A DNA stretch of 59,832 nt, filler included, from 4 parts of 4 records of this genome joined end to end with filler, not necessarily neighbours in it, one strand, 5' to 3'. Shown: positions 1 to 23,271, numbered from the whole stretch's first letter. Made by a program: numbers and translations. Notes: a model not told the origin generated them from the letters alone.

Positions 1-3
1 GAT

Positions 4-1392
4 ATGGCTGACGTCATAGATATTAATAAGCTGATGGCTGAAATTAGCTGGCCATCGCTTAAGATGCAGCGCAAGCAAAAAGCCACTGAAATCGAAAAAC
101 GTGAATTCGACAACAACCAGGCTACATCTTTTGTACAGCGTGTGCGAACGATCTTTGCACGGGAACAATCGGACACCGATAAGAGGTATGCGTCTTTTCG
201 CACTCTGATGCTGGAAATTCGGAGCGAAATAGATTTCGAAACTCGGGTGATCAAAATCAAAGAAGCGCTCGAAGACATGAAGCAAGAGGTTAGGCGCCAA
301 TTGCCCAAGTTGCGAGAAGCGAAAACAAAATATCAGGAAGAAAAAGCCGATTTTGATAATTACCGTGCGCTGAACGGCCTTACCCGACCAGCCATTGAAA
401 AACCGGACCACAAATACTTTTATGATCTCATTGGCATTCTCGCCATTGAAGCCCTTGGCAACATATCGATGATTGCGCCGGTGTCACCCAATCTCGTGGT
501 GGCGATTATTCTGTCGATGTTGATTGGCTTTGCAAACTTGAGCGTGATGTTTCTTGTCGGCTATTTTGGCACCAAAGGATTTTACACTCGCTTCCTTTGG
601 CGCAAGGTCTGCGCCTTTTTAGCGGTAATCTTTGCAATCACCGTCATGCCATTCTTTCACTGGATTGTGAGCATGTATCGCTCACAAGCCGCTCTGGCGT
701 CGAAAAGTCTGGAGAATGGCGACATCATGGCACTGCCCTCTGAAGGGGCGCTCTTCGAGGCTGTTGTCACCTATTTTTCGAAGCATGGAATTGGTTTTCT
801 GGACCTCACGGCCGTCCTGATGTTCGTCATCGGGATAATCATGGGAATATATGCTTGGTACAAAGGCCATAACTACGGAGACCCTATCACTGAATATGCA
901 GCACGGGAAAAGAAACTGCAGGAGCGGCACGATAACTTTTTAGTTCCAAGCGAGACTCTCCGAGAGTCAATCGTCGACTTGAGGAACGAAGTGCTCGACG
1001 AAATTAGTGACTACCTCAGAATGCTGCAGCCCCGTCTCCAAAACATCGATATGCACGTGGCTAAAATTGATGGTTTCGAGAAAGAAATAGTCCGGTTCTG
1101 CGACAGTTGCCGATCAGCGACGGATGTTTTCCTCAAGCGGTATAAATCGGATGTACTGGAAGGGGATATTCCCCCGTGGTTTTCTGCCATCGAGGAGCAA
1201 GCGGTTAGTACGATAGAACTGCCCGATCACTTTACTATCAATCTCAAAGAAGCCAGAGATTTGGCGGAGCAAGCCCACAAACTTGCCGAGACCGAAAGGC
1301 CAAGAGCCGAAGCCTATCAGAACGAAGCATTCAACAAGGTCGATCAGCTTCAAGAAAAAGTCGATAAGCTGCTTGAGGGAGTAGACGCATGA
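4..1392 (+). CDS. Membrane protein, about 4 TM helices flanked by N- and C-terminal coiled coils; first gene of a Zorya-like operon
   Basis: 462-aa ORF; hydrophobic segments at about aa 139-187, 200-222, 266-286; charged helical termini; stop overlaps next start (ATGA). At the window edge, so upstream context is unseen. Confidence 0.75.
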   Translation: MADVIDINKLMAEISWPSLKMQRKQKATEIEKREFDNNQATSFVQRVRTIFAREQSDTDKRYASFRTLMLEIRSEIDFETRVIKIKEALEDMKQEVRRQLPKLREAKTKYQEEKADFDNYRALNGLTRPAIEKPDHKYFYDLIGILAIEALGNISMIAPVSPNLVVAIILSMLIGFANLSVMFLVGYFGTKGFYTRFLWRKVCAFLAVIFAITVMPFFHWIVSMYRSQAALASKSLENGDIMALPSEGALFEAVVTYFSKHGIGFLDLTAVLMFVIGIIMGIYAWYKGHNYGDPITEYAAREKKLQERHDNFLVPSETLRESIVDLRNEVLDEISDYLRMLQPRLQNIDMHVAKIDGFEKEIVRFCDSCRSATDVFLKRYKSDVLEGDIPPWFSAIEEQAVSTIELPDHFTINLKEARDLAEQAHKLAETERPRAEAYQNEAFNKVDQLQEKVDKLLEGVDA

Positions 1393-2270
1393 GGCGCCCC
1401 CGAAATCACCGTTCACGGCCCCAACGGGCCCGACGGGGTCAGTCATTTTTTTCGTTTGAGTTATTGAGACGGAGCGCCGGACTTTTGTTGATGGCCGGCC
1501 TCTTCGGTACGGTTGCCTATCTGGTGATCAATGACGACAAATGTGATTATGCCAGCACAAATTTCTGTTCAAAGGAATGCCCTCCGAAGAACATTGTCGC
1601 GATCGGGGTTGATGCGAGCGGGGGGTTTGACGCCCGCCAGCAAGCTGCTCTCATGAGCAGCATACGCAGGGCAATTTCGACTGTGCCCGGATCCGAATAT
1701 TCCTCAACAGGCACAGGCCTGAGCAAAGGCGATCGTATAGATATTTACAACCTTCAGGCGGCAGCTGATGAGGCTATCGCGCCGCTATTATCAATCTGCT
1801 TTCCTGGGCAGGAGCCGACATCAGCCAATGATAATGCTCAGTTGGTTCGGAGCTATCACAATCGATTTTGGCAAGAAGTTACTCAGGTTATTTCCGGTGG
1901 GCTAAAAGCAGAAGCGGTAAATCAGTCACCCATTGCAGAAAGTATTGCTTCCATCGGCGATGTGGCCTTCCGGTCGGCTGACGCCATGTCATCTAAATAT
2001 ATGATCATCGTCTCCGACTTGCTCCAGAACAGCCCTGCATTCTCTGTCTATCGCGAAAGCCCTGATTTCAGCGCACTCAAAAAAAGACCCGAGTATGTAA
2101 AGCTTCGGACCGACCTTGGAGGAGCCAAAGTCTGCATGATCCGAATAAGTCGGTCTGATGCGCTAGAGCGCGCACGCCAAACTCCGAGACTATTGAATTT
2201 CTGGGCCGAATATGTCGCTGACAATCTCGGCGAATACGTTGTGGAATGCGAGACGCAGTTCAGGCTTTAA
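1389..2270 (+). CDS. Membrane-anchored VWA-like domain protein
   Basis: Arg-rich N-terminus, one TM, Cys cluster (CDYASTNFCSKEC), then IVAIGVDASGG (MIDAS-like DxS), SPIAESI and MIIVSDLLQNS, typical of VWA folds. Confidence 0.6.
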   Translation: MRRPRNHRSRPQRARRGQSFFSFELLRRSAGLLLMAGLFGTVAYLVINDDKCDYASTNFCSKECPPKNIVAIGVDASGGFDARQQAALMSSIRRAISTVPGSEYSSTGTGLSKGDRIDIYNLQAAADEAIAPLLSICFPGQEPTSANDNAQLVRSYHNRFWQEVTQVISGGLKAEAVNQSPIAESIASIGDVAFRSADAMSSKYMIIVSDLLQNSPAFSVYRESPDFSALKKRPEYVKLRTDLGGAKVCMIRISRSDALERARQTPRLLNFWAEYVADNLGEYVVECETQFRL

Positions 2271-2302
2271 GCGAGTACTAACTGGGATATTGGGGGCCCG
2301 TC

Positions 2303-3787
2303 ATGAGGAAAAAATCAAAACCTGCGAGCGAAGACACCGAGCAGGATCTCGCCACAGACGCAGGTGATGCCGACACACCTGAAGTGGCGGAAAGTCAACA
2401 AGTGGACGACACGCCACTTGATCAAAAAGATGTATCATCCCCTCAGGAAGAAGACATTAGTGCAGTTGACCCTGAGGCACAGAAGGAAGGCGAAGGCGAA
2501 AGCGATGTCGATACGGCGTCCTTGGGGAAGCCGACTAATCCGTCGAACTGGCTTGGGGGGCGTTTTTTCAACGGCCCCCATGACGATAATGTGTCCAGTG
2601 TTACGCGAGATGTACCCCGGTACAAAGTGTCGGACCAAAAGGAAAAACAAGCATTCATTGCCGTATTGGTGGTCGGCGTGGCCTTCGTCTTTTTTACCAA
2701 ACTTTTCGGCTTGCTACCCACATGGATCATTACCGGCACTTCAATGGTACTCGTCGGCGGATACGCATATCTCGCCTATATGATGCGAAACGAGGGAATT
2801 CGGGTCGACCGCGCCGGTGACAACGCCTACTACCTTGGCTTGGTGTATACACTTACCAGCATGTCTGTTGTACTGATCCGCGGAGATTTCGGCGCTGGTG
2901 CGGCTGAACAGATTTTGTCGGGGTTTGGTGTCGCGCTCGGATCCACAATCGCCGGTATCATATCGCGAATAATCCTGATCCAGTTCCGTGAGGGGGTAGA
3001 AGACCTGGAGCGAAGTGCAATGGTTGTCCTCAAAAACACCGTGCAAGACCTTGAGCACGCACTCATCAGTTCCGTTGAGCGGGCAACTGCGTTTTCTCGT
3101 GTGTTGGAAGATCACTCCTTGGCCGTGAAGGACACGTTCGCGGCGAGCTTCAAGGAGATCGAGACAACATCTCATGAGAACGTGAAAGAAATGAGCACTG
3201 CCCATATTGAATCACAAAGGGCGCTTGCGGAAGAAACCAAAGAAATCCTCAAAAGCGCTCGGGACTCTATGGCAGAAGCGGTGACACATATGGCTGAAAC
3301 CAGTCAGATAATTCGTGATGGTGCGAAGAGTGAACGGGAAGAATTTGGCCGCTTTTTGCAAGCGATCAGTACATTCTCCACCCAATTGGAAAAAGTTCAG
3401 GTCCCAACAGACATCATCACCGAGTTCATCCGCAGCCTTGAGGAACAACGCGACCATACCCGTCGCATCATCAGCGACACCGATTTGCTATATACAAATC
3501 TCAATGACAAAAGTGTCAACCTGAACAGGCGTCTTGAGGATATCACAGCAGATATTCAGGAACTCGCGAAGTCTATCAAGGACGAACACTCTTCAGTTTC
3601 AGATGTGACACATAGCTTGGCAGCGTTGGCCGATGAGGTAAAACGCTCCGGTACGCAGATCTCTGCCACCAGTACATCGCTCAACGCAGGCGTCGACGAA
3701 TTCAAAAAGAACAGCAGTGCCTATGTGAACACACTTGCTGAAACAGCAAATTTTCTCGCTGATGAAATTGGCCGAGGCAAACGGTGA
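2303..3787 (+). CDS. MotA/TolQ/ExbB (ZorA-like) channel protein with long C-terminal helical tail
   Basis: Acidic disordered N-terminus, 4 TMs with YYLGLVYTL and FGVALGSTIAG (MotA-family GxxxT and ALxT/ST motifs), then about 265 aa of coiled-coil-like tail. Confidence 0.7.
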   Translation: MRKKSKPASEDTEQDLATDAGDADTPEVAESQQVDDTPLDQKDVSSPQEEDISAVDPEAQKEGEGESDVDTASLGKPTNPSNWLGGRFFNGPHDDNVSSVTRDVPRYKVSDQKEKQAFIAVLVVGVAFVFFTKLFGLLPTWIITGTSMVLVGGYAYLAYMMRNEGIRVDRAGDNAYYLGLVYTLTSMSVVLIRGDFGAGAAEQILSGFGVALGSTIAGIISRIILIQFREGVEDLERSAMVVLKNTVQDLEHALISSVERATAFSRVLEDHSLAVKDTFAASFKEIETTSHENVKEMSTAHIESQRALAEETKEILKSARDSMAEAVTHMAETSQIIRDGAKSEREEFGRFLQAISTFSTQLEKVQVPTDIITEFIRSLEEQRDHTRRIISDTDLLYTNLNDKSVNLNRRLEDITADIQELAKSIKDEHSSVSDVTHSLAALADEVKRSGTQISATSTSLNAGVDEFKKNSSAYVNTLAETANFLADEIGRGKR

Positions 3788-4863
3788 TGCGGCAATCGGA
3801 TACAGAGTATCGCCGTGGAACACTTCTCGGCCTCACTCTAGCGGAAACACTGCTCATTCTGCTTTTCCTGTTTCTTCTCCTTTTTACAGATGTCATCGAC
3901 CAAAAGGACAAGGAGCAGGATAACCTGACGGCTGAGATCAAGCGTTGGCGAGAGGGGATCGAGAGTATTTTCGAAGTCCAACAGCCAGAGAAGTTGCCGG
4001 GAAAAATCGATCCGCAAGACCTGGATCGCCCTCTCGATGAGTTGCAGCTTATTGCCAACGAATATGCCACGGCCCGTGAAGAAATTGATCAACTGAGAAG
4101 TACACTTTCAAAAATTTCCGACGACCCATCAAAGATGGATGAAGTGGTTGAGCGTATCAAAGAAGTCGCCAAAGCAGAGGCCGAACTAAAAAAAATAGAA
4201 GAAAAGTTACCCAATAAGGATGTTTTGGTCGCCCAGGCCGAACAGCTTAAACCGCAGGAAAACCCAGGCGCGGTTATCGAACAGGTCATGGGTGAGCGAC
4301 TGGCCTTGCAGCAACAAGGCGGGAACATTGATGACGCCATTACATGTGCCGGCAAGCTCAAATCGTGCGACATGGAAAAGGAAGGTCTCATCCAAAAGTT
4401 TGCGGCAACCCTCGCGAATTTGGAGCCGGCGTCATGTTTAAAGTCGAATATGTCGTTAGATGGGATTCTGTCCGAAGGGAGCATTCTCTACAGCTTCGAC
4501 ATTTACCTTTCGCCTGAAGGTATCATGGTCATCCAGGGCGATGGTGTCCCCCCTCGGCCAGAGTATGGCTGGTATACGGATTGGTATGCGACGTTGGGCA
4601 CGCTACCACTAGAGAGACCCCTTTCCGCCGAAGAGTTTCGCCGCGCGTTCAAGCCCTTCTACGACAGAGCTGCCATCACAAACAATGCCGAACAAGGGCG
4701 GGATGGCAGGCCGTTTGGTAACAGCACGCTGGACTGTCGATTTTATGTTCGGCTCTTTCGCACGCCTGACCTGACCGATGTAAATTCAGCCGAAACCTTG
4801 CGCCACAGTGTTGAAAATATCTTCTATAAAAGCGAGCGGGGATCAAAAGCCTATGATGGTTGA
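3784..4863 (+). CDS. MotB/ZorB-like single-TM partner with coiled coil and non-OmpA C-terminal domain
   Basis: GTGA overlap with the upstream stop; TM GLTLAETLLILLFLFLLLF has Glu at the position of the MotB Asp; no OmpA motif (GHTD...NxxLSxxRA) visible. Confidence 0.65.
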   Translation: MMRQSDTEYRRGTLLGLTLAETLLILLFLFLLLFTDVIDQKDKEQDNLTAEIKRWREGIESIFEVQQPEKLPGKIDPQDLDRPLDELQLIANEYATAREEIDQLRSTLSKISDDPSKMDEVVERIKEVAKAEAELKKIEEKLPNKDVLVAQAEQLKPQENPGAVIEQVMGERLALQQQGGNIDDAITCAGKLKSCDMEKEGLIQKFAATLANLEPASCLKSNMSLDGILSEGSILYSFDIYLSPEGIMVIQGDGVPPRPEYGWYTDWYATLGTLPLERPLSAEEFRRAFKPFYDRAAITNNAEQGRDGRPFGNSTLDCRFYVRLFRTPDLTDVNSAETLRHSVENIFYKSERGSKAYDG

Positions 4864-5065
4864 TAGCGCCCTGAAACTAGCCTTGAGCAAGTTGCTCAGT
4901 AGTGCGTTGAAGCGCGTCGGCACCGAGTATGATTTCGAAGGCGTGGATTCTTTCCACCCCCGTGAAATTAACGACCTGAGGCCGATGTTTTCGTCACTGA
5001 AGGACCGGCAAGCAATTTATTTGCGAGCGCGCTACCATATCCAGAAATTCATCCGCAAATTCTAA
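4853..5065 (+). CDS. Possible small (70 aa) fifth gene of the operon
   Basis: ATG overlaps the end of the preceding gene; fills the gap before the convergent nuclease gene; no recognisable motif. Confidence 0.35.
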   Translation: MMVDSALKLALSKLLSSALKRVGTEYDFEGVDSFHPREINDLRPMFSSLKDRQAIYLRARYHIQKFIRKF

Positions 5066-5109
5066 ACCCGAATGCGCTTGGAAGGGCGGCATGGCAACGG
5101 GAAACCCTG

Positions 5110-6144
5110 TCAAACTCCCTCCAATCTCAACGCAATTATTTCCTTGGCTTTCAGGCGAATTTCGCGACTGAAATCGTACCAGTACCGCCCCTCTGGCACA
5201 TATTCAAAGTCGTGCAGCTTGGGATCCGTGAGCGCGTCGGTCACAATGCATATTCGGTATATGCCATCTGCAAAATGACCTTTTTCAAATGCCCTCATCT
5301 TCTTTGTCTCATTCGGACTAAACTCTGCCTGCACATCAGGCACTGATCGTCCTTTAACCTCAATGCATAGCGTGGTGTCTGCCCGCTGGGCCTTCAGGTC
5401 ATACCCCAAATTTTGGTCTTCAAAAGACTCGACGCTATAGCCCAAGCCAACGAAATGCCGTTTGACGTGCTTGATTGCACTCTTTTCCACACGCTTATTA
5501 TTTTCCACATCGACACGGCGCTTCGCCTTTTTTGTCAGCGGTCGAGGCACACGTCCGGCGACAATATCGTTGATCGCCGCCTGGATATGCGCACATTGGT
5601 CTGTCGCTTTATTGAGATAAAAAACCGGCGCCTGACCGGGCCATCCACTCCCTCTGCCTTGGGCTGTCGGGATGATGGTTGTGCGTTTACTGAGCGGGAG
5701 CAGATGACAGTCTCGCGCTTTCGCTTTCACTCTGAAGGTGAACTGTTCGCCTTTATAGGTCCGCATTTTCTTCGCGTTTTCATCATCATGTTCTTGCGGG
5801 TAACGGTAGAGAGTGGCGTTGTCATACCACCCCACGATCGCTTTTCCTTTGCCTTGGCGGGCAGGTGCCGTCCAGACTACTCTCACACCCTCGATGGCTT
5901 GATCTTTGGGCGCCGCCCCCAGGTTTTGAAGATTGAGCTGTTTCGGCTGACCGGATGACAAGGCATATTGGACATGGCCGTAACAGTATCCATCGATGTT
6001 CAGAAAATTGAACATTTCATGGCTCCAGTCCAATTCGGCGGGCCATTTAAAACCGCCAGCATAAAAGGAAGGCGGGGCCTCATATCCCTGATATTCTTTC
6101 ATCCATACGCCGTGCAACAGGACGGTTGGCGGTGTTTCTGGCAT
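5110..6144 (-). CDS. DUF3883 (NO VEIN C-terminal) PD-(D/E)xK nuclease with N-terminal putative DNA-recognition domain
   Basis: C-terminal VEKSAI...GYSVE...NLGYDL...IEVKGRS...FSPNE matches DUF3883; N-terminal WMKEYQG/HEMFNF/IVGWYDNATLYR domain; GGGAG SD before ATG 6144. Confidence 0.8.
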   Translation of the reverse strand: MPETPPTVLLHGVWMKEYQGYEAPPSFYAGGFKWPAELDWSHEMFNFLNIDGYCYGHVQYALSSGQPKQLNLQNLGAAPKDQAIEGVRVVWTAPARQGKGKAIVGWYDNATLYRYPQEHDDENAKKMRTYKGEQFTFRVKAKARDCHLLPLSKRTTIIPTAQGRGSGWPGQAPVFYLNKATDQCAHIQAAINDIVAGRVPRPLTKKAKRRVDVENNKRVEKSAIKHVKRHFVGLGYSVESFEDQNLGYDLKAQRADTTLCIEVKGRSVPDVQAEFSPNETKKMRAFEKGHFADGIYRICIVTDALTDPKLHDFEYVPEGRYWYDFSREIRLKAKEIIALRLEGV

Positions 6145-6369
6145 TGCGTGCTCCCATTTGGCATCAGACGTCGGCTGAACCTGAATGCATGGCCGCAACT
6201 TAGCCAAATATTTTCACACCTGTCACGAGCAAAAGCGCTCCCCAGCAAGCCCTCACAACCAGAGACAGTGAAGCACGCATTCGGCCCACACTCAAATATG
6301 GTTAACGCTGGACGCATGAAGTTTGCATCCGCATTTCTCTCGTCGGCCTTCATTTTCCGTTCAATATAT

Positions 6370-6402
6370 TTATCATCGATAACTTTCGGTTATCGATGAT
6401 AA
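6370..6402. other. loxP-like/res recombination site
   Basis: TTATCATCGATAA-CTTTCGG-TTATCGATGATAA: perfect 13-bp arms (14 with the inner C/G) around an asymmetric spacer, 7 bp upstream of the recombinase start. Confidence 0.8.
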
Positions 6403-6409
6403 TTGTGCT

Positions 6410-7558
6410 ATGCTCGCCACCATGTCCGACCCCGAAAAAGCCGATGAAACGGCCGATCGGCCACCGTTGTCACCTCCCCTCGAGGCGGACCAAGGCCTCA
6501 CGCCTGACGCACCTGCCACCAATCTGTTTACAACCGCCGACGCGGACGCTGCCCTTCTTATGGGGTGGCTTCCGGTCCAGGAAGCGCTACAACACGACCT
6601 GGATGAAGTGTATGCCCGGGTACGCGAACTCTCCTCGATGGCGCGTTCGGAGAATACCAAACGGGCCTACCGGGCCGGCTGGCGCCAGTATGAGGACTGG
6701 TGCCGCGGCATTGGGGTCAAACCGCTCTCCGGCGACCCTGGCATCGTCGCACTCTATCTGGCCATGCTCTCGAAAAAGGTGCTGCCCTCGACCCTCAAGG
6801 CCCGGCTCGCGGTGATCTCGGTCGCGCACCGCCTCGCCGGCATCAAGCTCGACACCCGCCACGAAGCGATCCGGCTGGTGTGGCAAGGAGCGGCGCGCGA
6901 GAAAGGCCTCGCGCCGCGCCGCCAAGCTCGCGCGCTGCACTATCGGGCGCTGCCCGCGCTTATGGATGTGTTTGATGATTGCCCGCTCGATATTCGCAAC
7001 AAAGCCATGGTGCTCCTCGGCTTCGCTGGCGCGCTCAGGCGCACCGAGATCTCCCAAATGGCGCTGGAGCATGTCACCCTCGCCAGAGACGGTCTCACGC
7101 TCTTCCTACCCCGCTCCAAGGCGGACCGTTTTGGTCTTGGCGAGAAGATCTTCATCTCTCCCCATCCTGACGCGCGCTTGTGCCCAATCAAAGCCCTCAC
7201 AGCCTGGCTCAAGATCCGGCCCGAAAGCGGCAGCCGGCTCTTCCTGTGTGCGAACAGGAACGGCAGTTTCCGGGACAAAGGGATCAGCGAGCAAACCGTC
7301 GCGCGTATCGTCAAGGATGCGGTCGAAGCCCTCGGCTTCGACCGCACCGTCTATAGCGGACATAGCCTGCGCGCCGGGCTGGCCACCTCCGCCGCTGACG
7401 CCGGCTGCGACCTCAAGGCCATCATGACCCAAACCCGGCTGCGCACCGCCAAACAGGCCATGACCTATATCAGGGATGCGGAGCGGCGAAGGCAGAGCGT
7501 GACGCGGACGCTGTTTCAGCCGATCGAGGTGGACAGTCAGGAGCCCTCACCCCCTTGA
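6410..7558 (+). CDS. Cre/TnpS-like tyrosine recombinase
   Basis: N-terminal core-binding domain (SENTKRAY...W), GALRRTE (Arg), PRSKAD (Lys), HSLRAG (HxxR), C-terminal YIR nucleophile; usual His/Trp position reads QTRLRT. Confidence 0.92.
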   Translation: MLATMSDPEKADETADRPPLSPPLEADQGLTPDAPATNLFTTADADAALLMGWLPVQEALQHDLDEVYARVRELSSMARSENTKRAYRAGWRQYEDWCRGIGVKPLSGDPGIVALYLAMLSKKVLPSTLKARLAVISVAHRLAGIKLDTRHEAIRLVWQGAAREKGLAPRRQARALHYRALPALMDVFDDCPLDIRNKAMVLLGFAGALRRTEISQMALEHVTLARDGLTLFLPRSKADRFGLGEKIFISPHPDARLCPIKALTAWLKIRPESGSRLFLCANRNGSFRDKGISEQTVARIVKDAVEALGFDRTVYSGHSLRAGLATSAADAGCDLKAIMTQTRLRTAKQAMTYIRDAERRRQSVTRTLFQPIEVDSQEPSPP

Positions 7559-7564
7559 GGGAGC

Positions 7565-8776
7565 TCATAGTTCCCTTTGCGCCCGTTGCCTCGCTTCATA
7601 GGCGCGCACGTCTGACACGGGCACCCGGTGCGTAATCCGCTTGCCGTGCCACAAAGGTTGATCTCTCAAATGGCCGCTAGCCACCAACCGGTCGAACTCC
7701 CGTTTCCCGATCGACAGGCGCGCGCAAGCATCCCTTTTTGTCAGAAAATTAGCCTGTAGCGGATCGAAGCCTCGTGCGCCGCCGCACCCGGTGACGCCCA
7801 ACCTGATTTCTTCCTGAATAATAAAATTATGTGTTTCGTTGAGACAGCTATCTACTGTGACGACCTGCTTGACCCCGTACAAAGTCGGATAGAGCCGCCC
7901 CAGAGAGTTCCAAAGGCCGCTTTCACTGACGGCTTCGTCCAATAAGCGGGCTTCGTGGCATTGGCGGAGATAGTTGTGGAAACTCGTTGGCCAGTGCTCG
8001 ATGGCTGGCACCACCAATTTCGCGAATTCCGGCCGGTCGAAATCGTTCACCTCGTTTTTCCGCTCAGGATGATAGCGATAAAGAAGCTCCAAGGTCGTGA
8101 GCAGTTCGCCGAGCGACATCACATCTGCTATTCTATGACAGTCGTTAATTCCGAGACCTAGTCCCCACTTCCCCGCCTTATGGGCAACCAGACGGGACAA
8201 TTTGAGAGCTGGTTCCGTGGCCGGGCGCGATTTCGCCTCATACAGAGCAGCACCGCATTCACCACAGCTCAATGGATCGGGGCGGAAGCAGGTAAGCCGG
8301 GCACCACAAGAAGGACAGCGGTCGCACAACATCGTGTTGTGACGAGGACATGCGGTGAATACGCGCAGCTCCCAGCAACGGTAGAAAAACCCGTCTTCCG
8401 CCAGGCATTCTGCGCAGAAGCGACGTGCCTGGACATCCACATTTTTTGCCCGAGCCACTTCACCGCCCGGCACAAACACGAAGTTTGCCGGCTTCCGCTC
8501 CGGCTTAAATGTCATTCTGGTAAAGCGACCGGCGAAGTAGCCAGCGTCGGCGTCCATCTTCTCGGCCAAGAGCCGGAGGGTTGCCAGATATTCCTTCCGC
8601 GGCTCGATATGACACCCGTAGGTCTCGGCGATGGCTTTGATCGACGGATAATAGTTGGCCGCAGTCAACCGCATCAGATAGCCAACAAAACTTTCGCGGG
8701 CGTGCGGTACCACAAAGATAGGGAAAGCGAGTGGCCTATCACGAAGCGGCCGGGACGGGATTTTACGCTCAATCAC
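7565..8776 (-). CDS. tniQ: TniQ/TnsD-family target selector with zinc fingers and C-terminal excisionase-like HTH
   Basis: PHARESFVGYLMRL TniQ signature; CAECL...W...CPRH...CPSCG...CGECG; C-terminal FLTKRDACARLSIGKREFDRLVASG HTH; probable GTG start at 8776 overlaps tnsC stop. Confidence 0.9.
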   Translation of the reverse strand: MIERKIPSRPLRDRPLAFPIFVVPHARESFVGYLMRLTAANYYPSIKAIAETYGCHIEPRKEYLATLRLLAEKMDADAGYFAGRFTRMTFKPERKPANFVFVPGGEVARAKNVDVQARRFCAECLAEDGFFYRCWELRVFTACPRHNTMLCDRCPSCGARLTCFRPDPLSCGECGAALYEAKSRPATEPALKLSRLVAHKAGKWGLGLGINDCHRIADVMSLGELLTTLELLYRYHPERKNEVNDFDRPEFAKLVVPAIEHWPTSFHNYLRQCHEARLLDEAVSESGLWNSLGRLYPTLYGVKQVVTVDSCLNETHNFIIQEEIRLGVTGCGGARGFDPLQANFLTKRDACARLSIGKREFDRLVASGHLRDQPLWHGKRITHRVPVSDVRAYEARQRAQREL

Positions 8777-9668
8777 ACCATTGATCCGAGAAAGGGTTTC
8801 CGACGCCTTCCAGATCTTTTTCTTGGCTGCACAACTGGTTAAAAGCGCACCAGAGATCTTTGGCCACAATCTCCTCCCGACGCTGTGACAAGGCCTCTAG
8901 CCCAGCCGCGATCAGAAGCCGCGAAACAAACCCTACCCGCCCCAGGGTTGCCCGGTGAACTTGTGCTGCCATGGCTTTTGTCGCCAACATAGAGGCGTTA
9001 GCGAAAGGCATCGCATCGCTTAGAAAGAGCAATAAACATTGAAAGGCCTCAATCTCGTCCTGGGATGTAAAGCCAAATGGCTGAACGGTAACAATCCGTT
9101 GGGTCCGGCGATGCAACTGCTCGCTGGACGAAATGACTTGTGTCATCTTAGGAAGGCCGAACACGAAGATCGAAAGGTGGATTTTATCAATAAGGGCTTT
9201 GAACCAGTCGACACATTTTTCAAGAACTTTCTCTGTTTCGCGATCGATAAAGTGATTCAACTCGTCAAACACCACGGCAGAGACTTTCAGGTCCTTTATA
9301 AGACCGACAGCGCGAGTGGTGAGCTCTGAAGTCCGGCCTTTTTCAGCCCGAGGATCGCCAAGTGCCTCCAAGACGGCTGTGGCTAAATTTTTGACCGTGC
9401 TATTCGGAGGAACGTAGACAACCAAGATGGTGCCACCACCAAGGACACTTCCTCCGTTCCGGCGGACAAAAAACTCCATCAAGCTTGTTTTACCCAGACC
9501 CGTCGGTCCCTGAACAAGCATCATCTTGCCCGATTTCGCTCTTTTCATGCTGCAGTGAAAGAGCCGGAGTTCACGGGCTAACCGATCGATTTGGTCGTAC
9601 ACTTGGTATTGGTGATCGAGCGCTCCCAGAATTGTCACACGCTTTTCAACTTCATCCTCGGTCAACAT
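8769..9668 (-). CDS. tnsC: TnsC/TniB AAA+ transposition ATPase
   Basis: Walker A GPTGLGKT, Walker B VVFDELNH, QLHRR arginine-finger region; lies between tnsB and tniQ. Confidence 0.9.
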   Translation of the reverse strand: MLTEDEVEKRVTILGALDHQYQVYDQIDRLARELRLFHCSMKRAKSGKMMLVQGPTGLGKTSLMEFFVRRNGGSVLGGGTILVVYVPPNSTVKNLATAVLEALGDPRAEKGRTSELTTRAVGLIKDLKVSAVVFDELNHFIDRETEKVLEKCVDWFKALIDKIHLSIFVFGLPKMTQVISSSEQLHRRTQRIVTVQPFGFTSQDEIEAFQCLLLFLSDAMPFANASMLATKAMAAQVHRATLGRVGFVSRLLIAAGLEALSQRREEIVAKDLWCAFNQLCSQEKDLEGVGNPFSDQWCD

Positions 9669-11596
9669 TTGGACGTACCTCGCTCTTTATCCTGCAAACT
9701 TTTGCGAAGGGTCGCAATCTCTTGGTGCGTTGAGGCATCCGGATTAAGGGTGTTTTTAGGCGCCTTTGCCTTGGGTCGCCGCGGTGTCTTCAGAGCTGCA
9801 ACTGCGTGAGCTCGATCATTGCCGCGCACCACTTTCCGGCCGTATGCGGTAAGATGCTTCCTGATTTTTCGTGCTTGCACCGCCGCGTCTGAGCCCGCGA
9901 TAAGTGCCTTCTCGCGCTCCACTTCCTCAGCCCTTATGGCCTCATGGAGCCACAGGTCGCGCCCTCGGTATTCCGTCTTGTCGGTCGGCACCTTGATAAA
10001 CCGCTGCTCATTCGGAACTTTGACGTAAATAGCCCCGATATCTACAGGGTCTACTCTGAGATCGATTATGAAAGGCTTAGCCCCGAGCTTCTGCCAAAGT
10101 CTCTTTAACTCGTCACTCTGGTAAAATGTCCCGTGAATTTCGATACCACGCTTCTGCAGTGTGCGCGTCTCATGAATGGAACAGCTCATGCGCACCGATT
10201 CAGGGCTGGCTGGCAGGTCCACGGGGAACTGCTTCACGCCTTCGACCCACTTATTCATCGGAATGTCGCAGAGTGTCCTATGAAAACGGTGAACATACAC
10301 ATCGACTATCCACTTATGCAGACTCTCGTAGAGCTCTTGATAAGGTATACAAGCTCTCTGAGCTGCAAGCGTTACTTCAGTTGTATTCTCGACATCGGGA
10401 ATGAAGCCAGGCAAACCTTTCAGAAAACTGACCTTAAGCGTTCCAAAGAAGGACTCTATCGTGCCTTTCCAGTTGGGTGAACCGGGCGGGCAAATGACCG
10501 TATCAATACCCATTTCGACACACATCCGCTCGTGCGCTTCCCCGACAAACGGTGCCCCACGATCGGCCACCAATTTGTGTGCCAGACCATGAACCGGGTA
10601 TGCCTTCTCCACCGAAGGCAGGCTCGAAAGGAGGTCACTATACCCGAGAATACCACGCCGGATCCCAGCGCCAACACTTGCAAAATCCGCTCGAAACCCA
10701 AGGGAAATGGCCCACGGCACGCGCGAAAACAAATCGATCGCGACATATAGCCAGGGACGAATGACACCCCCACCAGGCAAGGGGATGTAAATGGGCAGCA
10801 TCTGATGGTCTTCATAGAGATATTGAAGCGGCGCAGTGGCCTCATAGCCTTTACCTGTCGCCCGAAACTGAAGGTCAGCATGGCGGCGTCCATGGTGGGC
10901 GACCGCAACAGTGTAGCAATCAAGGCTCCCGAAGACACGATAGCACGTCGCTTTACTGACCGTCTTTGCTCTTCCCGTGTACCCGGCAGCGGCGCGGATA
11001 TTTTCAATTCCGGGAATAATTTCTTCTTCGATTATGACGCGCTTCGAAGGTGGATTGACTTTCAAAAATTCTCGCTTGATGACCTGTTCGCAGAACGTCA
11101 TTTCTTCATCCGTGAAGGCATGCCTTTTGCGGCCGCGGCCACGGAATTTAGGCACCAGAACGTCGTTGTTTTTACCATGCCTGAGCCATTCCCGATACCA
11201 GCTCGCCACTGTACTTCGCTTTGGCGGACGTTTATCCGCAATGATTACCGCGACATCACGGATCACAGCCTCTATAATCGAACGGACGGATTGGTCGGGG
11301 CGACACGCACGGTGCAGCGACGTAACGTACCAAAGTCGCCTGCTGTAGACCTCCTTGGCTTTTCCGGTTAGGTCTACCCTGTAGCCGAGCTTTTCCTTTT
11401 GTTCTTCAGGCTGAAACAAAGTCAATTCACCTGAGAGAATTTTCGCTTCCAGATCCTCCCTGCTCATTGTGCGATGGCGACCGTTCGCCACAATCTTGAG
11501 CACCACCCCATGCCGAGTTTCTAACTCGTCGATTTTCAGGTCAGTATCACCATCAAACAAAATAAGACCGACGTGCAATTTGATCCGTTCACTCAC
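9662..11596 (-). CDS. tnsB: TnsB Mu-type DDE transposase
   Basis: D (YLYEDH), D (LVADRG), E (KGTIESFF); Mu-transposase C-terminal region (LRVDPVDIGAIYV); GGAGG SD before GTG at 11596. Confidence 0.92.
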   Translation of the reverse strand: MSERIKLHVGLILFDGDTDLKIDELETRHGVVLKIVANGRHRTMSREDLEAKILSGELTLFQPEEQKEKLGYRVDLTGKAKEVYSRRLWYVTSLHRACRPDQSVRSIIEAVIRDVAVIIADKRPPKRSTVASWYREWLRHGKNNDVLVPKFRGRGRKRHAFTDEEMTFCEQVIKREFLKVNPPSKRVIIEEEIIPGIENIRAAAGYTGRAKTVSKATCYRVFGSLDCYTVAVAHHGRRHADLQFRATGKGYEATAPLQYLYEDHQMLPIYIPLPGGGVIRPWLYVAIDLFSRVPWAISLGFRADFASVGAGIRRGILGYSDLLSSLPSVEKAYPVHGLAHKLVADRGAPFVGEAHERMCVEMGIDTVICPPGSPNWKGTIESFFGTLKVSFLKGLPGFIPDVENTTEVTLAAQRACIPYQELYESLHKWIVDVYVHRFHRTLCDIPMNKWVEGVKQFPVDLPASPESVRMSCSIHETRTLQKRGIEIHGTFYQSDELKRLWQKLGAKPFIIDLRVDPVDIGAIYVKVPNEQRFIKVPTDKTEYRGRDLWLHEAIRAEEVEREKALIAGSDAAVQARKIRKHLTAYGRKVVRGNDRAHAVAALKTPRRPKAKAPKNTLNPDASTHQEIATLRKSLQDKERGTSKC

Positions 11597-11597
11597 T

Positions 11598-12188
11598 TCA
11601 TCCTCCCATCTTCGGGTTTCGGGATAATAGGCAGTCGGGTCCAAGGCCTGCTGACAGGTCGGCTTGCAGCTGGCAGGAGATAATTAGCTGATCCACGTGA
11701 CCTTCTGTGCCCAGGTAGCTCACCAACTGAGCCAGTGTGGCTGGCCATTCACCCGGGTAGGCGTCGAGCCTTTCCAATAGTTGACGAGACGGTACTTGCC
11801 GTCGGCTTCGTCGCAGGCGTGTGACCGTTGCCCTGACGGAAGCATCGAGCAAGAAATCACGATCAAAAAGCCGAAGCTGCAGGCCTGCACGCTGCATGGC
11901 CCGGCAGGTTTCTGATAGAGCTTTCGGAAGGGCGCCCGCCGGGCGCAAATCGGCAAAATAGGTGCCTGAAAAGGTGTACACCAACGCCGGAAACTTTTGT
12001 CGGGCCATGCCGTTGATATCCGGGGACATCACTTGCGCACGAATATGGCGCACATGGGGGTCTACATCCAGATACTCAAACAGGGCCTGCTGTGCCACAC
12101 CACGCCACTTGAGAATACCGTCCGATTTCCTGCTGGCAATATAGCCTTCGAGAAAAAGGCGGGTCTGCGGAGTAACATCGATACCCAT
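11598..12188 (-). CDS. tnsA: TnsA-like protein with degenerate endonuclease motifs
   Basis: GYIASRKS...LDVDPHVRHIRAQ matches the TnsA N-terminal pattern; first in the tns operon; ESxLE/PD/EVK positions read RGVAQ/PA/DLR; GAGGAG SD before ATG 12188. Confidence 0.75.
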   Translation of the reverse strand: MGIDVTPQTRLFLEGYIASRKSDGILKWRGVAQQALFEYLDVDPHVRHIRAQVMSPDINGMARQKFPALVYTFSGTYFADLRPAGALPKALSETCRAMQRAGLQLRLFDRDFLLDASVRATVTRLRRSRRQVPSRQLLERLDAYPGEWPATLAQLVSYLGTEGHVDQLIISCQLQADLSAGLGPDCLLSRNPKMGG

Positions 12189-12385
12189 CAATCCCTCCTC
12201 TCAATACCGCACGCAGACAACAAAGTGGGGCGATGACGAGCTAACTCTTGGATTTGTATGCCAGATGCGAGGGCACAGCTGTTGATCCAGCACCCTCCAA
12301 TGGCTTGGCGCCCATAGAAGATCCCCGAATGCACCAACGTCGCCACCAGGTTACGCGTGTTGCAAAAAATGAAACACCAGGACAT
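12188..12385 (-). CDS. Small (65 aa) leader ORF coupled to tnsA
   Basis: AGGAGG 5 nt before ATG; stop overlaps tnsA start (TGATG). Confidence 0.45.
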   Translation of the reverse strand: MSWCFIFCNTRNLVATLVHSGIFYGRQAIGGCWINSCALASGIQIQELARHRPTLLSACGIERRD

Positions 12386-12721
12386 ATCGGCCTCCTGTTG
12401 ACACCTCCTCTAGGGTGCGCGAGGTCGAATGCAAGTCAATAAATATTCGCTAAGGCTATGAATTGCAGGGAGTTTTCATGACAAAAACACGGCATTAGAA
12501 AATGTTTTCCGAAATAAAGGAGGCGACTCGCCAACATTTTAGAAAATCTAATCTACAAATTTATTGCCATACATAAGTATAATAAAACCACTATTTTATA
12601 GAGTGATTATTTTTATTATATATATAACTAACAATTACTTTAAAAGCATAAAGATTGTCCCCCGAAACATGCCCGCAAAGCTTCTGGAGAGGTTGCGTGA
12701 AAAGAATGAGATGTTGGAAAA

Positions 12722-13072
12722 TCAGCTTTGAGCTTCAAAAATGGCATTAATCGCGCTGCGCGTGGCCTTCAGCGTCTTGAGATCCATCGCGACAATATCC
12801 GCAACGAGACGCGCTTCAAGATTCACGTGTTCTTTCGTTTTTTTGGTCTGGTCGGTGGTACTGCGGCCAAACACGAGTTCATCCAGACCACACTCAAGTG
12901 CCTGAGCCAAATCAATCAGCGTGGCAAGATTTGGCGCATTCACACCGCGCTCAACTTGAGATATCGTAAACACCGAGCGGGCTGACAGGCCAGCAAGGTC
13001 TTCCTGCGTCAGGCCTCTGGCCTTCCGGTAGGCGCCGATGCGCGCGCCAATGATATTTGCTAGTTTATCCAT
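12722..13072 (-). CDS. XRE-family HTH regulator
   Basis: IGARIGAYRKARGLTQEDLA...TISQVERGVNAPNLATL; likely start MDKLANII. Confidence 0.9.
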   Translation of the reverse strand: MDKLANIIGARIGAYRKARGLTQEDLAGLSARSVFTISQVERGVNAPNLATLIDLAQALECGLDELVFGRSTTDQTKKTKEHVNLEARLVADIVAMDLKTLKATRSAINAIFEAQS

Positions 13073-13190
13073 CCTAGTAAAATGCAACGGGTTTGGATGG
13101 CACTGAATATACATACCTACTATTTGACGCCATAAATCAGCGACTATATACTGGTTGCACATTCAGGTTTCTATTCGAGGAAACGGAACC

Positions 13191-13448
13191 ATGGCCGAAC
13201 AAACAGATAAGCTTGCAGCAGCGCATGAACTCGAACTGTCGATTGTGAATGCTGTCTTTGACTATGTGAACGACGATGACAGCAAGGCGGGATTTGGCAT
13301 CAGCGCAGCATTCAGGGCCTGCGTGTCGCTGGCCAAAAACTCCTCCATGTCACCTCAGACGCGGATGGCGCTTGCACAGCATGTTTTCCTTGACATGACC
13401 GGCGACCTCACACCGTCAACAATCCGCGGTGCGAACGACCGGCAATAA
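13191..13448 (+). CDS. Hypothetical 85-aa protein divergent from XRE
   Basis: GAGG SD before ATG 13191; helical composition. Confidence 0.6.
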   Translation: MAEQTDKLAAAHELELSIVNAVFDYVNDDDSKAGFGISAAFRACVSLAKNSSMSPQTRMALAQHVFLDMTGDLTPSTIRGANDRQ

Positions 13449-13575
13449 CAGAACGCCCAAGCCTATGGCGAGAGCGCCATTGTTACTGACAGTTCTTGAC
13501 CAGAACCGCAGGAAGTTTCGATCTGATGCGCACCGAAGGATAAAAGGCCATAAGGCCCGCAACCCGGCACGCAAA

Positions 13576-13779
13576 TTACGTTCCCCGTTCATCTTCGGGA
13601 AGCCTTTTCCGGCGCAATCGCTGATTGCTCAGGTCTATAAGCATGCCAGCCTTGACATAGCCCTCACCGTGAACCTCCCAGCCGTCTGCAATAAGCTCAT
13701 CGATTTGTTCCTGAACTTTCTCGTTCTCAAAATGCCGCCACCTGATCACTCGATATTCATATTCATCATCTGCCTGCAT
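13576..13779 (-). CDS. Small DUF4177/DUF1737-like protein
   Basis: YEYRV...IDELIADGWEV pattern; GAGGGGG SD; directly downstream of the tRNA-like gene on the same strand. Confidence 0.6.
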   Translation of the reverse strand: MQADDEYEYRVIRWRHFENEKVQEQIDELIADGWEVHGEGYVKAGMLIDLSNQRLRRKRLPEDERGT

Positions 13780-13856
13780 CACATCCCCCTCTCTCAGAGG
13801 CCATACACGCACCTACGCCAACGGCCAGTATCTGCAATCAACGGATATCAAAATGA

Positions 13857-13949
13857 TGATAGGGGTGGTCGGCATCGAACCGACGACCTGCCGCTTATCT
13901 GGCGCTACGGGATATAAGACTGCTGCTCTACCAACTGAGCTACACCCCC
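13857..13949 (-). tRNA. Atypical tRNA-Ile(UAU)-like gene with 17-nt insertion after the anticodon
   Basis: Minus strand: GGGGGTG TA GCTC AGTTGGTA GAGC A GCAGT CTTATA [TCCCGTAGCGCCAGATA] A GCGGC AGGTC GTCGG TTCGATG CCGAC CACCCCT A TCA; intact acceptor, D and T arms. Confidence 0.8.
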
Positions 13950-14477
13950 ACAAAAATTCACACGCGGCTTACCGGAGCATCATTTGAGCGGCGTCTTGTC
14001 CACGAAAATAGTGCCCCTCAAATTTGGGGGAATCGCAACTTTGATCTCCTAATCTTCGTTGTTTAAAGCAACATGAGATGGACCGAGCGAACTTAACTTG
14101 CCAAGCTCTACAATCGGTATGGATCTCGTAAAAAGTCATCACAGCGGCCAGATGGCGGTAATATCCACAACTGGAAAATGTCATTCAATTATGCCTCAGC
14201 ATTAGTGTACGAACCGGGAAACCGCAAACCTCTGCCTAACATTGGGCGACCAAGTCATCACATGCACCCTCAGGGAAATATACTCAAATATAACCGTGTA
14301 TAAGCCGTTTGCGATATACATGATTATACTTCGATAGAAACGAAAGAAATTGTTGGACCATAACGCGGTGTCCACAATCACCTACCCGTCGCATTCACCT
14401 AGGCTATTTGTGCGCCGTTGCTGGTTAACGACAGGCCGATCATCCTCAAAACCTGCTATTGATTCTTTTGGTTTCAG

Positions 14478-14502
14478 CCGCTCTCGACCCAAAGCGGACA
14501 TT
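14478..14502 (+). repeat. Hairpin boundary repeat, copy 1
   Basis: CCGCTCTCGACCCAAAGCGGACATT; 16/18 identical to 21816-21833. Confidence 0.6.
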
Positions 14503-14510
14503 CCGCAACC

Positions 14511-15440
14511 TTACCTGCACTCATGCACCTCGACAGTGAGGTGGCAAATGCCGATTTCGCGTTCAATACGGGATTTGTAGTGATCGGGGTGTTGCGGTGC
14601 GTGTGCCACCACAGACACAATAGCGGCGAGCTGGTTTGAGTTGAGCCGCCACACGTGCAGGTCGGCTACCTTGTCATCCCCACTGTCTTCGATCACGGTG
14701 ATGATCTTCTCGCGCGCGGCATCGTCATCGTGCCGGTCCAGAAGGATCGCGGCGGTATCCTTGCCAAGCCCGATTGCCCATTTGGTGATAATCACGGCAC
14801 CGACGATGCCCATCACAGGATCGAGCCACACCCAGCCGAACGATTTGCCGGCCAGCAGGGCAACGATGGCAAGGACAGACGTGAGCGCGTCCGCCATCAC
14901 ATGCAGATAGGCTGCGCGCAGGTTATGGTCGTGATGATGGTGGTGGCTGTGACCATGGCCCTCGTGGTTGTGCTCGCCATGATGATGATGGCCACCAAGC
15001 ATGAAGGCACTGGCGATATTTACCACGAGCCCCAGCACCGCAACACCAATGGCTTGGTTGAACTGGATCGACTGTGGCGTGATCAACCGTTCCACCGATT
15101 CAACCGCCATCAAAAGTGCGACAACCCCGAGCACAATAGCGCTTGAATAGCCTCCCAGCACGCTCACCTTGCCGGTGCCGAAGCTGAACGCATCGTTGTC
15201 TGCATGCTTGCGCGCGTATGCATAGGCAAACAGCGTGATGCCGAGCGCTGCGGCGTGGGTGCCCGTATGCCACCCGTCGGCCAATAGCGCCATGGAGCCA
15301 AAGGTAACGCCCGCCGCAATTTCAGCCACCATCATGATGACGGTCAGCCACACCACCCAGCGTGTGCGCTTCTCGGCATGGTCACTCGCACCATGGAAGT
15401 CATGATCATGTGTCCACTTGCTCATATTATCCGCGTGCAT
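14511..15440 (-). CDS. dmeF: CDF family Co/Ni efflux transporter DmeF
   Basis: SMALLADGWH, FSFGTGKV, His-rich loop, NLRAAYLHVMADALTS, DLHVW. Confidence 0.88.
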   Translation of the reverse strand: MHADNMSKWTHDHDFHGASDHAEKRTRWVVWLTVIMMVAEIAAGVTFGSMALLADGWHTGTHAAALGITLFAYAYARKHADNDAFSFGTGKVSVLGGYSSAIVLGVVALLMAVESVERLITPQSIQFNQAIGVAVLGLVVNIASAFMLGGHHHHGEHNHEGHGHSHHHHHDHNLRAAYLHVMADALTSVLAIVALLAGKSFGWVWLDPVMGIVGAVIITKWAIGLGKDTAAILLDRHDDDAAREKIITVIEDSGDDKVADLHVWRLNSNQLAAIVSVVAHAPQHPDHYKSRIEREIGICHLTVEVHECR

Positions 15441-15468
15441 TTCATGTTCCTTACTTTGGAGAAATCTC

Positions 15469-15494
15469 TGAGGTGGCCCCGAAGGGCCACCTCA
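15469..15494 (-). terminator. GC-rich hairpin with C(UUCG)G loop between czcA and dmeF
   Basis: TGAGGTGGCCC-TTCG-GGGCCACCTCA, 11-bp stem; no strong U-tract, so possibly a stabiliser or partial terminator. Confidence 0.6.
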
Positions 15495-15510
15495 TGACAG
15501 GTTTGGGGTG

Positions 15511-18687
<3,177 letters not shown>

Positions 18688-19950: not shown

Positions 19951-19951
19951 G

Positions 19952-21262: not shown

Positions 21263-21338
21263 GATGTCTACTCTCATCAAAAAACAACAGAGAGCGCGCA
21301 GCGACTGCCGCACGCGAGAATGTCAAGATTTGAAGAGA

Positions 21339-23126: not shown

Positions 23127-23271
23127 CGCTCGCTTCTACCTATCGTCGACTTGGGGGCATCGTGCCTCACCCATTCAAGCTGTCTTTTATGCCATAGAAT
23201 TTGTGTGGCATAGAGATTGGTGTCTGAGCTACTCAAGGGCTACGAGAATAGCCCTAAAATGAAGAGGGCTG

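Follow-up and report, generated by a model that had tools for sequence, protein, structure and literature searches.

A candidate targeted, replicative Tn7-like transposon with an apparently inactive TnsA and its own Cre-like recombinase and lox-like site

At their ends, Tn7-like transposons have terminal inverted repeats together with TnsB-binding repeats in arrays, and a 5-base pair (bp) target duplication flanks their insertions. May and Craig reportedly showed in 1996 that the TnsA substitution D114A makes Tn7 transpose replicatively and form cointegrates and, to our knowledge, such a switch is so far known from engineered mutants or from lineages that lack TnsA. The TnsA-less elements Tn5053 and Tn402 use a serine resolvase, and Kholodii et al. 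are said to have described in 1995 their gene order, tniA–tniB–tniQ, together with the serine resolvase TniR and res. Tn4651-type elements use the tyrosine recombinase TnpS, and the tyrosine resolution modules of the Tn3 family comprise TnpI with IRS (Tn4430) and TnpS–TnpT with rst (Tn4651). For a type I-D CRISPR-associated transposon (CAST), the article text of PMC9881144 gives cointegrates in 149/150 with the TnsAB mutant D106A. Here we describe an element of a marine bacterium, found in a 59,832-nucleotide (nt) stretch of DNA (the window; four parts of four records joined with filler, whose coordinates are used throughout). The recognised parts of the element (6370–12188) are a palindrome, a gene for a Cre-like recombinase (rec) and a convergent tniQ–tnsC–tnsB–tnsA operon, in which the TnsA-like protein appears to have kept its fold and lost its catalytic residues. 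We propose that it is a replicative, TniQ-targeted transposon of the Tn7 lineage whose cointegrates are resolved by Rec, a reading that we regard as evenly balanced between right and wrong.

Architecture of the element

The site and the five genes are arranged as follows.

6370–6402, no strand: candidate recombination site, a perfect 33-bp palindrome, 7 nt before the Rec ATG
6410–7558, plus strand: Rec, Cre-like tyrosine recombinase, 382 amino acids; Pfam Phage_integrase, 3.7e-13
7565–8869, minus strand: TniQ, target selector; Pfam TniQ PF06527, 4e-16; Cys/His clusters and a C-terminal HTH_17-like helix-turn-helix
8769–9668, minus strand: TnsC/TniB, AAA+ ATPase, 299 amino acids; Pfam TniB, 8.9e-20, with AAA_22
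9662–11644, minus strand: TnsB, DDE transposase, 660 amino acids; Mu-transpos_C, 5.5e-7 and 29.9 bits, above the cut-off
11598–12191, minus strand: TnsA-like open reading frame (ORF); the ATG at 12188 gives 196 amino acids

All five genes are intact. The four minus-strand genes overlap or abut one another across 7565–12191, with the TnsA-fold gene overlapping the start of tnsB, and rec converges on tniQ so that their stop codons lie 6 bases apart (7559–7564). TnsB keeps the catalytic residues D279, D361 and E397, which are invariant across nine aligned TnsB/TniA proteins, and has an rve match of 27.8 bits, below the Pfam cut-off; TnsC has the Walker A motif GPTGLGKT and the Walker B motif VVFDE. 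The initial annotation had described an intact DDE TnsB, intact TnsC Walker motifs and an intact TniQ, a tyrosine recombinase abutting tniQ with stops 6 bp apart, and a perfect 33-bp inverted-repeat site at the 5′ end of the recombinase gene, and each of these was found as it had placed them.

In its TnsB with a Mu-type C-terminal domain, its AAA+ TnsC, its TniQ and its TnsA fold, the element resembles Tn7-like transposons, whereas the TnsA active-site residues of that group are missing from its protein. With Tn5053/Tn402 it shares a short TniB, TniQ, a presumed replicative logic and a recombinase beyond tniQ, but it differs in having a TnsA-fold gene, in having as its sole recombinase a Cre-like tyrosine enzyme rather than the serine enzyme TniR, and in the convergence of rec with tniQ and the simple site, two 13-nt arms around a 7-nt spacer (13-7-13), at the 5′ end of rec. 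A classical Tn5053-type member, with a serine resolvase after tniQ, occurs in the same bacterial order (L118). Tn4430 and Tn4651 likewise have a tyrosine recombinase and an adjacent site for cointegrate resolution, a role that for the present element is a proposal; their transposase is the Tn3 TnpA, whereas here a DDE TnsB/TniA acts beside an AAA+ regulator and TniQ, and no accessory protein gene was recognised at the element.

TnsA retains its fold and lacks the catalytic residues

The TnsA-like ORF matched no Pfam family, even at E ≤ 10, and no solved relative in a plain sequence search, and an exhaustive phmmer search against 1.84 billion representatives returned only 10 matches, including P0007 and P0008, which resemble it. 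Three further proteins, P0009 (E 2.4e-10), P0013 and P0014, match Pfam Tn7_TnsA-like_N (P0009 and P0014 above the cut-off, P0013 below it) and carry the motifs WESxxE, YTPD and EVK. A profile built from 20 members of the family matched solved TnsA chains (30jv_A, 1e-14; Tn7 TnsA 1f1z_A, 1e-6). Where 13 relatives with live motifs have (W)ESxxE, (T)PD and E-x-K, the window protein reads WRGVAQ, FPAL and DLR. Aligned with 1f1z_A through the family profile, and in the family alignments, Tn7 E63, D114, Q130 and K132, which from the structural literature we take to be the active site, correspond to Q33, P67, D80 and R82.

An AlphaFold model built from a 20-row alignment had a predicted local distance difference test score (pLDDT) of 88.8 and a predicted template modelling score (pTM) of 0.82. 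The top four Foldseek hits in the PDB are all TnsA (1t0f_B, 1.9e-7; 9bw1_M, 6.2e-7; 1f1z_A, 1.1e-6; 1t0f_A, 1.1e-6). VIA-align superposed the model on 1f1z_A with Z 10.3 and a root-mean-square deviation of 6.8 over 175 aligned residues, spanning model residues 10–191, and thus covers both TnsA domains. The profile matches and the model together identify the ORF as a true TnsA homologue, predicted to have the TnsA fold with the catalytic residues gone. This agrees with the initial annotation, which had called TnsA apparently dead on the basis of its motifs and had proposed aligning or modelling it on Tn7 TnsA; the fold matched and the catalytic positions were replaced.

The inactive form recurs. 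Six such proteins (P0003–P0008), at 100, 89, 85, 81, 50 and 42% identity and 193–202 amino acids in length, have W28-R29-G30 and P67-A68 invariant. Because an unconstrained, drifting gene would be unlikely to stay open with its replacement residues over such a distance, this conservation across the relatives suggests that the dead form is maintained rather than decaying. The Tn7 D114A and I-D D106A mutants likewise have a TnsA present without the acidic residue at the D114 position. By contrast with those mutants, the loss here arose naturally, extends to all four active-site positions and is shared across a small protein family, and the element has a short, TniB-type TnsC (299 amino acids) and its own recombinase and site.

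A predicted complex of dead TnsA with TnsB gives a faint hint of an association: it scored 0.59, against 0.01 for the best of three controls, with runs agreeing in at least 45% of contacts and a partner pLDDT of at least 78. The mark used in this test was reached by 51/78 solved complexes and 2/108 mismatched pairs, but scores of 0.60 or below comprise just 5/78 solved complexes and all 4 passing mismatches (of 180), and the pass may reflect likeness, since TnsA–TnsB complexes have already been solved. A profile scan of genome contigs for further dead-TnsA loci returned the window's own locus only; of the two metagenome scans, one was empty and the other gave just two contigs (1.8 and 2.8 kb), both with live TnsA; and among the plasmid records neither the TnsA-like protein nor the 6.1-kb element DNA had a match.

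Rec is Cre-like and has a 13-7-13 site

Cre chains are the best solved relatives of Rec (E 4e-11; Rec residues 76–367 against Cre 38–342). The catalytic R, K, H-x-x-R and Y align with those of Cre (LRR, SK, GHSLR and TYIR), and a Leu stands at the position of Cre W315. R211, K237 and H318 are invariant across nine tns-linked Recs. Compared with a ~94% identical relative in sequencing run X12, 32/39 of the listed differences fall at codon position 3, and Rec is under purifying selection.

The palindrome at 6370–6402 is TTATCATCGATAAC-TTTCG-GTTATCGATGATAA; a perfect palindrome with 14-nt arms and a fixed 5-nt loop is expected by chance ~2e-4 times per 59.8 kb. It is best read as 13-nt arms (TTATCATCGATAA and TTATCGATGATAA, matching at 13/13 positions) around the 7-nt spacer CTTTCGG, and, because this spacer is asymmetric, the site has a direction. 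Cre/loxP likewise has, beside the gene, a pair of 13-nt inverted arms with an asymmetric spacer between them. The loxP spacer is 8 nt, whereas that of Rec is 7 nt, and Rec further differs from Cre in a ~75-residue N-terminal extension, in the Leu at W315 and in being embedded in a transposon.

A scan of 5′ ends found the 13-7-13 site (GATAA-N7-TTATC core) beside all nine tns-linked Rec genes. Of 12 distant Rec loci, seven have the site and one more has half of its core; at the other four, no such site lies nearby. Across loci the inner CGATAA does not change, and the outer seven arm bases vary but remain symmetric, and so co-vary (TTATCAT/ATGATAA in the window versus TAACCTC/GAGGTTA in L049). 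Each element has one site. The description of the recombinase as Cre-like and of its site as lox-like thus holds, with catalytic residues retained and a family-wide site whose arms co-vary. The arms also supply −35/−10-like hexamers for rec, TCGATA-16-GATAAT (a pattern match only), and Rec binding at the site could repress rec.

A further conserved feature adjoins the site.

6296–6369, plus strand: conserved ~75-nt stretch directly 5′ of the site, common to L015, L016 and L017 (same genus)

Identity to these three loci is 76–79% over 102–116 nt, and the similarity starts at ~6296–6299; the stretch could be an accessory sequence, a promoter region or the edge of the element. Sites also occur without a rec gene, in L015 (~6641–6691), in L017 (7762–7874) and as an extra site in L013 (13543), and L016 (~7428–7546) has a site with a Rec pseudogene. 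The second L013 site carries the spacer of another Rec subgroup (L042/L044). In contig 28 of genome G003, two sites lie 26 kb apart in the same orientation.

Rec is linked to tniQ–tniB–tniA modules

Searching 401 genomes of the order for Rec gave 12 genomes with a match at E ≤ 1e-40. At nine places the identity is at least 53%, the window's twin in genome G001 included, and at all nine rec lies tail-to-tail with tniQ–tniB–tniA. At their 3′ ends, rec and tniQ overlap by up to 131 nt or are separated by at most 23 nt, which leaves no space for a transposon end between the two genes, and Rec, TniQ, TniB and TniA are the sole proteins conserved throughout the nine loci. Rec is physically part of these tni modules. 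Order and class searches found tns genes at 0/12 of the distant Rec loci. Distant Rec relatives are present on 742 plasmid records, and the two inspected adjoin toxin–antitoxin or RepA/ParB genes, a setting in which multimer-resolution genes sit.

The other eight Rec-linked elements have a TniA of 533–592 amino acids. None of the seven with upstream DNA has a TnsA (Pfam; family profile at ~0 bits); L014, with only 91 nt upstream, was left out of this count. On the same two comparisons of the upstream ORFs, a degenerate TnsA in these elements was considered and rejected. The match in L041 covers Rec residues 15–321 only, and this rec gene may be truncated.

TnsA state and the probable origin of Rec

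In a maximum-likelihood tree, the window Rec lies inside the nine-member tni-linked clade (support 100/99) and groups with four same-genus elements (94/95), while the remaining four tni-linked Recs branch outside. The window Tns proteins are 22–25% identical to those of the TnsA-less L012–L014, versus 24–32% to those of L017, which has a live TnsA. Because the window Rec nests in the TnsA-less clade and the Tns proteins are nearer to live-TnsA elements, the simplest history is that Rec was acquired, with a TnsA-bearing element probably taking the Rec/site module from a TnsA-less one.

When the same 401 genomes were searched with a profile, 13 places matched, spread over 10 genomes, and eleven further TnsA–TnsB–TnsC–TniQ elements were read with their flanks, ten of them with live motifs. 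One, L082, lies on a 5.3-kb contig ending in tniQ and was left out of the live-TnsA count. A Rec profile that also detects distant integrases found Rec in 0/9 live-TnsA relatives with adequate flanks. The remaining element, L080 (G679:C2, 9444–15437), has an independent TnsA-family gene of 299 amino acids without a Pfam hit, followed by TnsB, TnsC and a 633-amino acid TniQ; of the four Tn7 positions, E63 is kept, and L, L and M stand at D114, Q130 and K132.

The relatives bear on the pairing of Rec with dead TnsA in a further way. P0018 (an 89% identical Rec) and P0004 (an 89% identical dead TnsA) both have a longest contig of 32474 and come from the same two sources, and they are probably on one contig.

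As the TnsA-less elements above were collected through Rec, a survey with a TniA profile, not chosen by Rec, provides a second view: 28/401 genomes matched at E ≤ 1e-30, and 18 further places were read.

5 places (L114–L116, L122, L128): TnsA-less, with another tyrosine recombinase beside the module
2 places (L118, L130): TnsA-less copies of the classical element, in which tniQ is followed by a serine resolvase
2 places (L123, L125): canonical TnsA, no adjacent recombinase
5 places: nothing recognisable
4 places: too short to judge

This pattern, though unclean, fits elements without a working TnsA carrying a resolvase. The recombinases of L114–L116, L122 and L128 have Phage_integrase and SAM-like N-terminal domains and are either divergent from tniA or located after tniQ; capture of a recombinase by tniA–tniB–tniQ modules may have happened several times.

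Element ends and copies

Two more features lie around the operon.

12615–12644, minus strand: promoter-like TTTAAA-18-TATAAT, AT-rich spacer upstream of tnsA; a consensus match only
6049–14352, no strand: block recurring in a contig of run X12 at ~94–96% identity, the largest unit seen in two contexts

At least half of the sampled words from 5200–13700 are present in 11 runs. In X12, a contig of 18,986 nt (record 9, depth 46.6) with loose ends on both sides matches 6049–14352 and is unlike the window beyond these two points, although sequence diverged by more than 15% would also appear unlike in this comparison. The five-gene block therefore occurs in another organism with different neighbours. 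The block also carries an XRE gene, two small ORFs and a tRNA gene. A joint in run X9 that links 5518 to 13925 and skips 8406 nt was not counted, being found in one contig with a shorter side of 22 letters at a tRNA-like repeat. Stretches lacking cover in run X15 were likewise left out of the evidence.

The ends of the element were searched for by repeat, alignment and short-word comparison. Repeats between 12189–12760 and 5900–6420, and between 6000–6420 and 12190–14450, were no better than those of shuffled sequences, and likewise nothing rose above shuffles in L012–L014, L017, L074 and L075. A search for an empty site compared 40 relatives with window positions 1–20000 and found only czc genes and pieces of Rec in common, and the left flank from genome G013 is absent from the window and from the 40 kb upstream.

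Proposed mechanism and alternatives

We propose the following mechanism, by which a Tn7-lineage module would probably have changed over from cut-and-paste to replicative movement. TnsA would have kept its two-domain fold as a structural subunit of the transposase and lost the cutting of 5′ ends. As TnsA would no longer cut there, TnsB would act alone, nicking the 3′ ends and joining them to a target that TniQ and TnsC select, with a cointegrate as the product. Rec would then recombine the two directly repeated 13-7-13 sites, one in each transposon copy, and so resolve it. Because the site overlaps the putative rec promoter, Rec would also keep down its own expression. The module of Rec and site would have come from a sister lineage of TnsA-less tniA–tniB–tniQ elements, in which Rec occupies the place that the serine resolvase TniR has in Tn5053. 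The gene content, the dead active site on a predicted TnsA fold, the linkage of Rec to tni modules, the conserved site and the placing of Rec within the TnsA-less clade are observed here; that the element transposes and forms cointegrates, that Rec resolves these and controls its own gene, and that TnsA acts as a scaffold, we infer.

The initial annotation had proposed such replicative transposition with resolution by the recombinase. The dead TnsA fold, the Cre-like Rec, the family-wide site and the 9/9 linkage to tni genes speak for that part of it, and the ends that a transposon should have were not found. A bolder form of the reading, in which the locus is a living intermediate between Tn7 and Tn5053 that is active, structurally requires its dead TnsA and captured a Cre-like resolvase from an undescribed Tn5053-like branch, is one that we lean against.

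Several observations weigh against replicative transposition with resolution by Rec. In the window and in 40 kb leftward of it, we found no terminal inverted repeats, no TnsB-site arrays and no target duplication, in searches that short or degenerate ends would escape, and the nearest genome, G001, has a single copy. The motifs flanking the TnsB catalytic residues are atypical (DHQ for DHT, DRGAPF for DNGxEF and FIPD for TFSN) and depart from those of all eight other aligned transposases, and TnsB may itself be impaired. The L080 locus spans 19.9 kb and extends 4.5 kb past tniQ; the Rec profile has no match in it, and the four ORFs scanned there have no recombinase Pfam domain. The proposed co-occurrence of dead TnsA with the recombinase therefore stands in one of the two independent dead lineages read with their surroundings, in the window and not in L080, a thin test. 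L017, the closest live-TnsA element, has a solo site directly after tniQ together with the ~75-nt upstream stretch, so the site can adjoin live-TnsA elements without the gene; L017 may have lost Rec, or the site may relate to such elements in another way. A candidate Rec remnant in L017 was rejected, with an alignment score of 39 against a shuffled mean of 35. Moreover, the eight TnsA-less elements were found through Rec, and their linkage count is not unbiased; the live-TnsA loci were screened with a Rec profile, which does not systematically cover serine recombinases; and 5/18 surveyed TniA places have no visible recombinase, with four too short.

Among the rival explanations, the one that survives best is that the locus is an immobile relic or chimera, in which a TnsABC–TniQ element came to lie beside, or recombined with, a tniABQ–Rec element whose tni genes were replaced, with TnsA now decaying and Rec left over. 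We consider this unlikely. It would accommodate the failure of the repeat, alignment and short-word searches to detect ends, the single copy in the nearest genome, the atypical TnsB motifs and the different origins of Rec and the Tns proteins. A patchwork of Tn7-like sequences nearby (it includes another complete element in G001 and, 13 kb to the left, a piece of TnsA), together with the solo sites and the Rec pseudogene at other loci, points the same way. A decaying locus is nevertheless hard to reconcile with a dead-TnsA family that is full-length at 42–89% identity with invariant replacement residues, or with five intact genes in which rec and tniQ stop 6 nt apart and Rec is under purifying selection. 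The block moreover recurs at ~94–96% identity, with different flanks, in a run from another organism, and the 89% identical Rec and dead TnsA are probably on one contig.

Less probable again is that Rec serves another recombination task, such as cargo exchange, integration or excision of circles, or resolution of replicon dimers, as in Tn6022 or Tsy modules. Tyrosine-recombinase-derived genes are likewise associated with Tn7-like elements in TnsF and in the Tn6022 module, and the article text of PMC11014353 describes how the XerC-like protein of Tn6022 partners host XerD at a hybrid dif site and how this recombinase and its dif-like site mediate recombination between elements; Tsy, in the text of PMC10293859, is mobile by means of tyrosine recombinases through circles. 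The solo chromosomal sites in L015 and L017, the second site in L013 and the many distant Rec relatives on plasmids are in keeping with such a task. The tail-to-tail linkage to tniQ–tniB–tniA is, by contrast, confined to elements without a working TnsA (9/9), with Rec in 0/9 live-TnsA relatives; a general cargo function is disfavoured because it would not predict this linkage. In addition, each element has one site, as resolution needs.

That Rec and its site act in targeting, either because tni elements home to a recombinase locus or because Rec selects targets with TniQ as TnsF does, is improbable: elements of the Tn5053 family insert at resolvase-occupied res sites, and the L017 site stands directly beside the end of tniQ without Rec, but the nine loci leave no space for a transposon end between rec and tniQ, an unoccupied Rec of the clade was seen in 0/9, nothing else upstream of rec is conserved as a targeted host element would be, and the site lies at the far end of rec, ~1.2 kb from tniQ. 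In the text of PMC10293859, TnsF is a recombinase-derived partner of TniQ in target selection, with N-terminal zinc fingers and no catalytic activity, and its gene shares an operon with tniQ. Rec, by contrast, retains the catalytic residues and has a palindromic site of its own, and its gene runs convergently towards tniQ.

Genomic surroundings

Window positions 1–23271 are 100% identical to G001, whereas 23272–59832 have no counterpart there save a few pieces at 66–92% identity. The G+C content drops from ~0.60 to ~0.40 near 21.5–23 kb, and the 135 nt before the break (23137–23271) recur at two other places in G001 with 89–92% identity; the change near 23271 may mark a difference between strains or a repeat at which the assembly was joined. 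Positions 1–110 recur 4.3 kb upstream in G001, at 93% identity.

To the left of the element, positions 4–6207 hold four co-directional ORFs without Pfam families and then an ORF with a NOV_C domain, with weak PADLOC matches (ZorA, 2.5e-5; LmuB, 4.8e-4; TmtA, 7.9e-7), and may be a defence-type cluster. Further left, 13 kb from the window start, L057 (6869–7183) has a 105-codon TnsA fragment with live motifs. Just past the shared stretch, G001:C1 carries at 930.6–935.9 kb (L074, 5052–10340) a second complete TnsA–TnsB–TnsC–TniQ element with a live TnsA. Tn7-like elements look piled up locally in this region of G001.

Beyond the tnsA/tniA end, an XRE-type helix-turn-helix gene and a divergent small ORF (97 and 110 amino acids) occur both in the window (12722–13448) and in L012 (12699–13433). 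The XRE proteins are 50% identical, whereas the transposition genes are just 23–25% identical, and the pair may represent a target region or a regulator that the two elements have in common. A tRNA gene on the minus strand (13860–13949; 90 nt, Rfam 52 bits; ARAGORN tRNA-Ile, anticodon TAT, 93 nt) lies inside the X12 block; its 5′ half (13917–13952) is 85–94% identical to tRNA genes of many relatives, and its 3′ part is unusually long. Next, 14511–21313 (minus strand) carry a czcD-like cation efflux gene and a resistance–nodulation–division (RND) operon (outer-membrane factor, membrane fusion protein and AcrB-family pump). Genome G013 has this czc/RND block at 90% identity in a different context, and the metal-efflux block looks mobile too.

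Discussion

In full texts of the literature, supplements aside, we found no natural dead TnsA with a recombinase and no tniABQ element with a Cre-like resolvase; the supplements of large Tn7 surveys may list such loci. The closest arrangements described in the literature are TnsF and the XerC-like/dif-like module of Tn6022. A conserved dead TnsA that goes with an acquired resolvase would represent in nature what D114A is in the laboratory, and would let the structural role of TnsA be tested apart from its catalysis. If the locus is a true intermediate between Tn7 and Tn5053, it shows an order for the loss of TnsA, in which the resolvase is gained, the nuclease dies and the gene then goes.

The TnsA-less sister clade (Rec–tniQ–tniB–tniA, eight examples) would provide Tn5053-like transposons with a compact resolution module of the tyrosine-recombinase kind. 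Cointegrates also remain after insertion by CRISPR-guided transposons that lack TnsA; for these CASTs, a resolvase that is small, self-contained and paired with a 33-bp site would be a candidate remedy.

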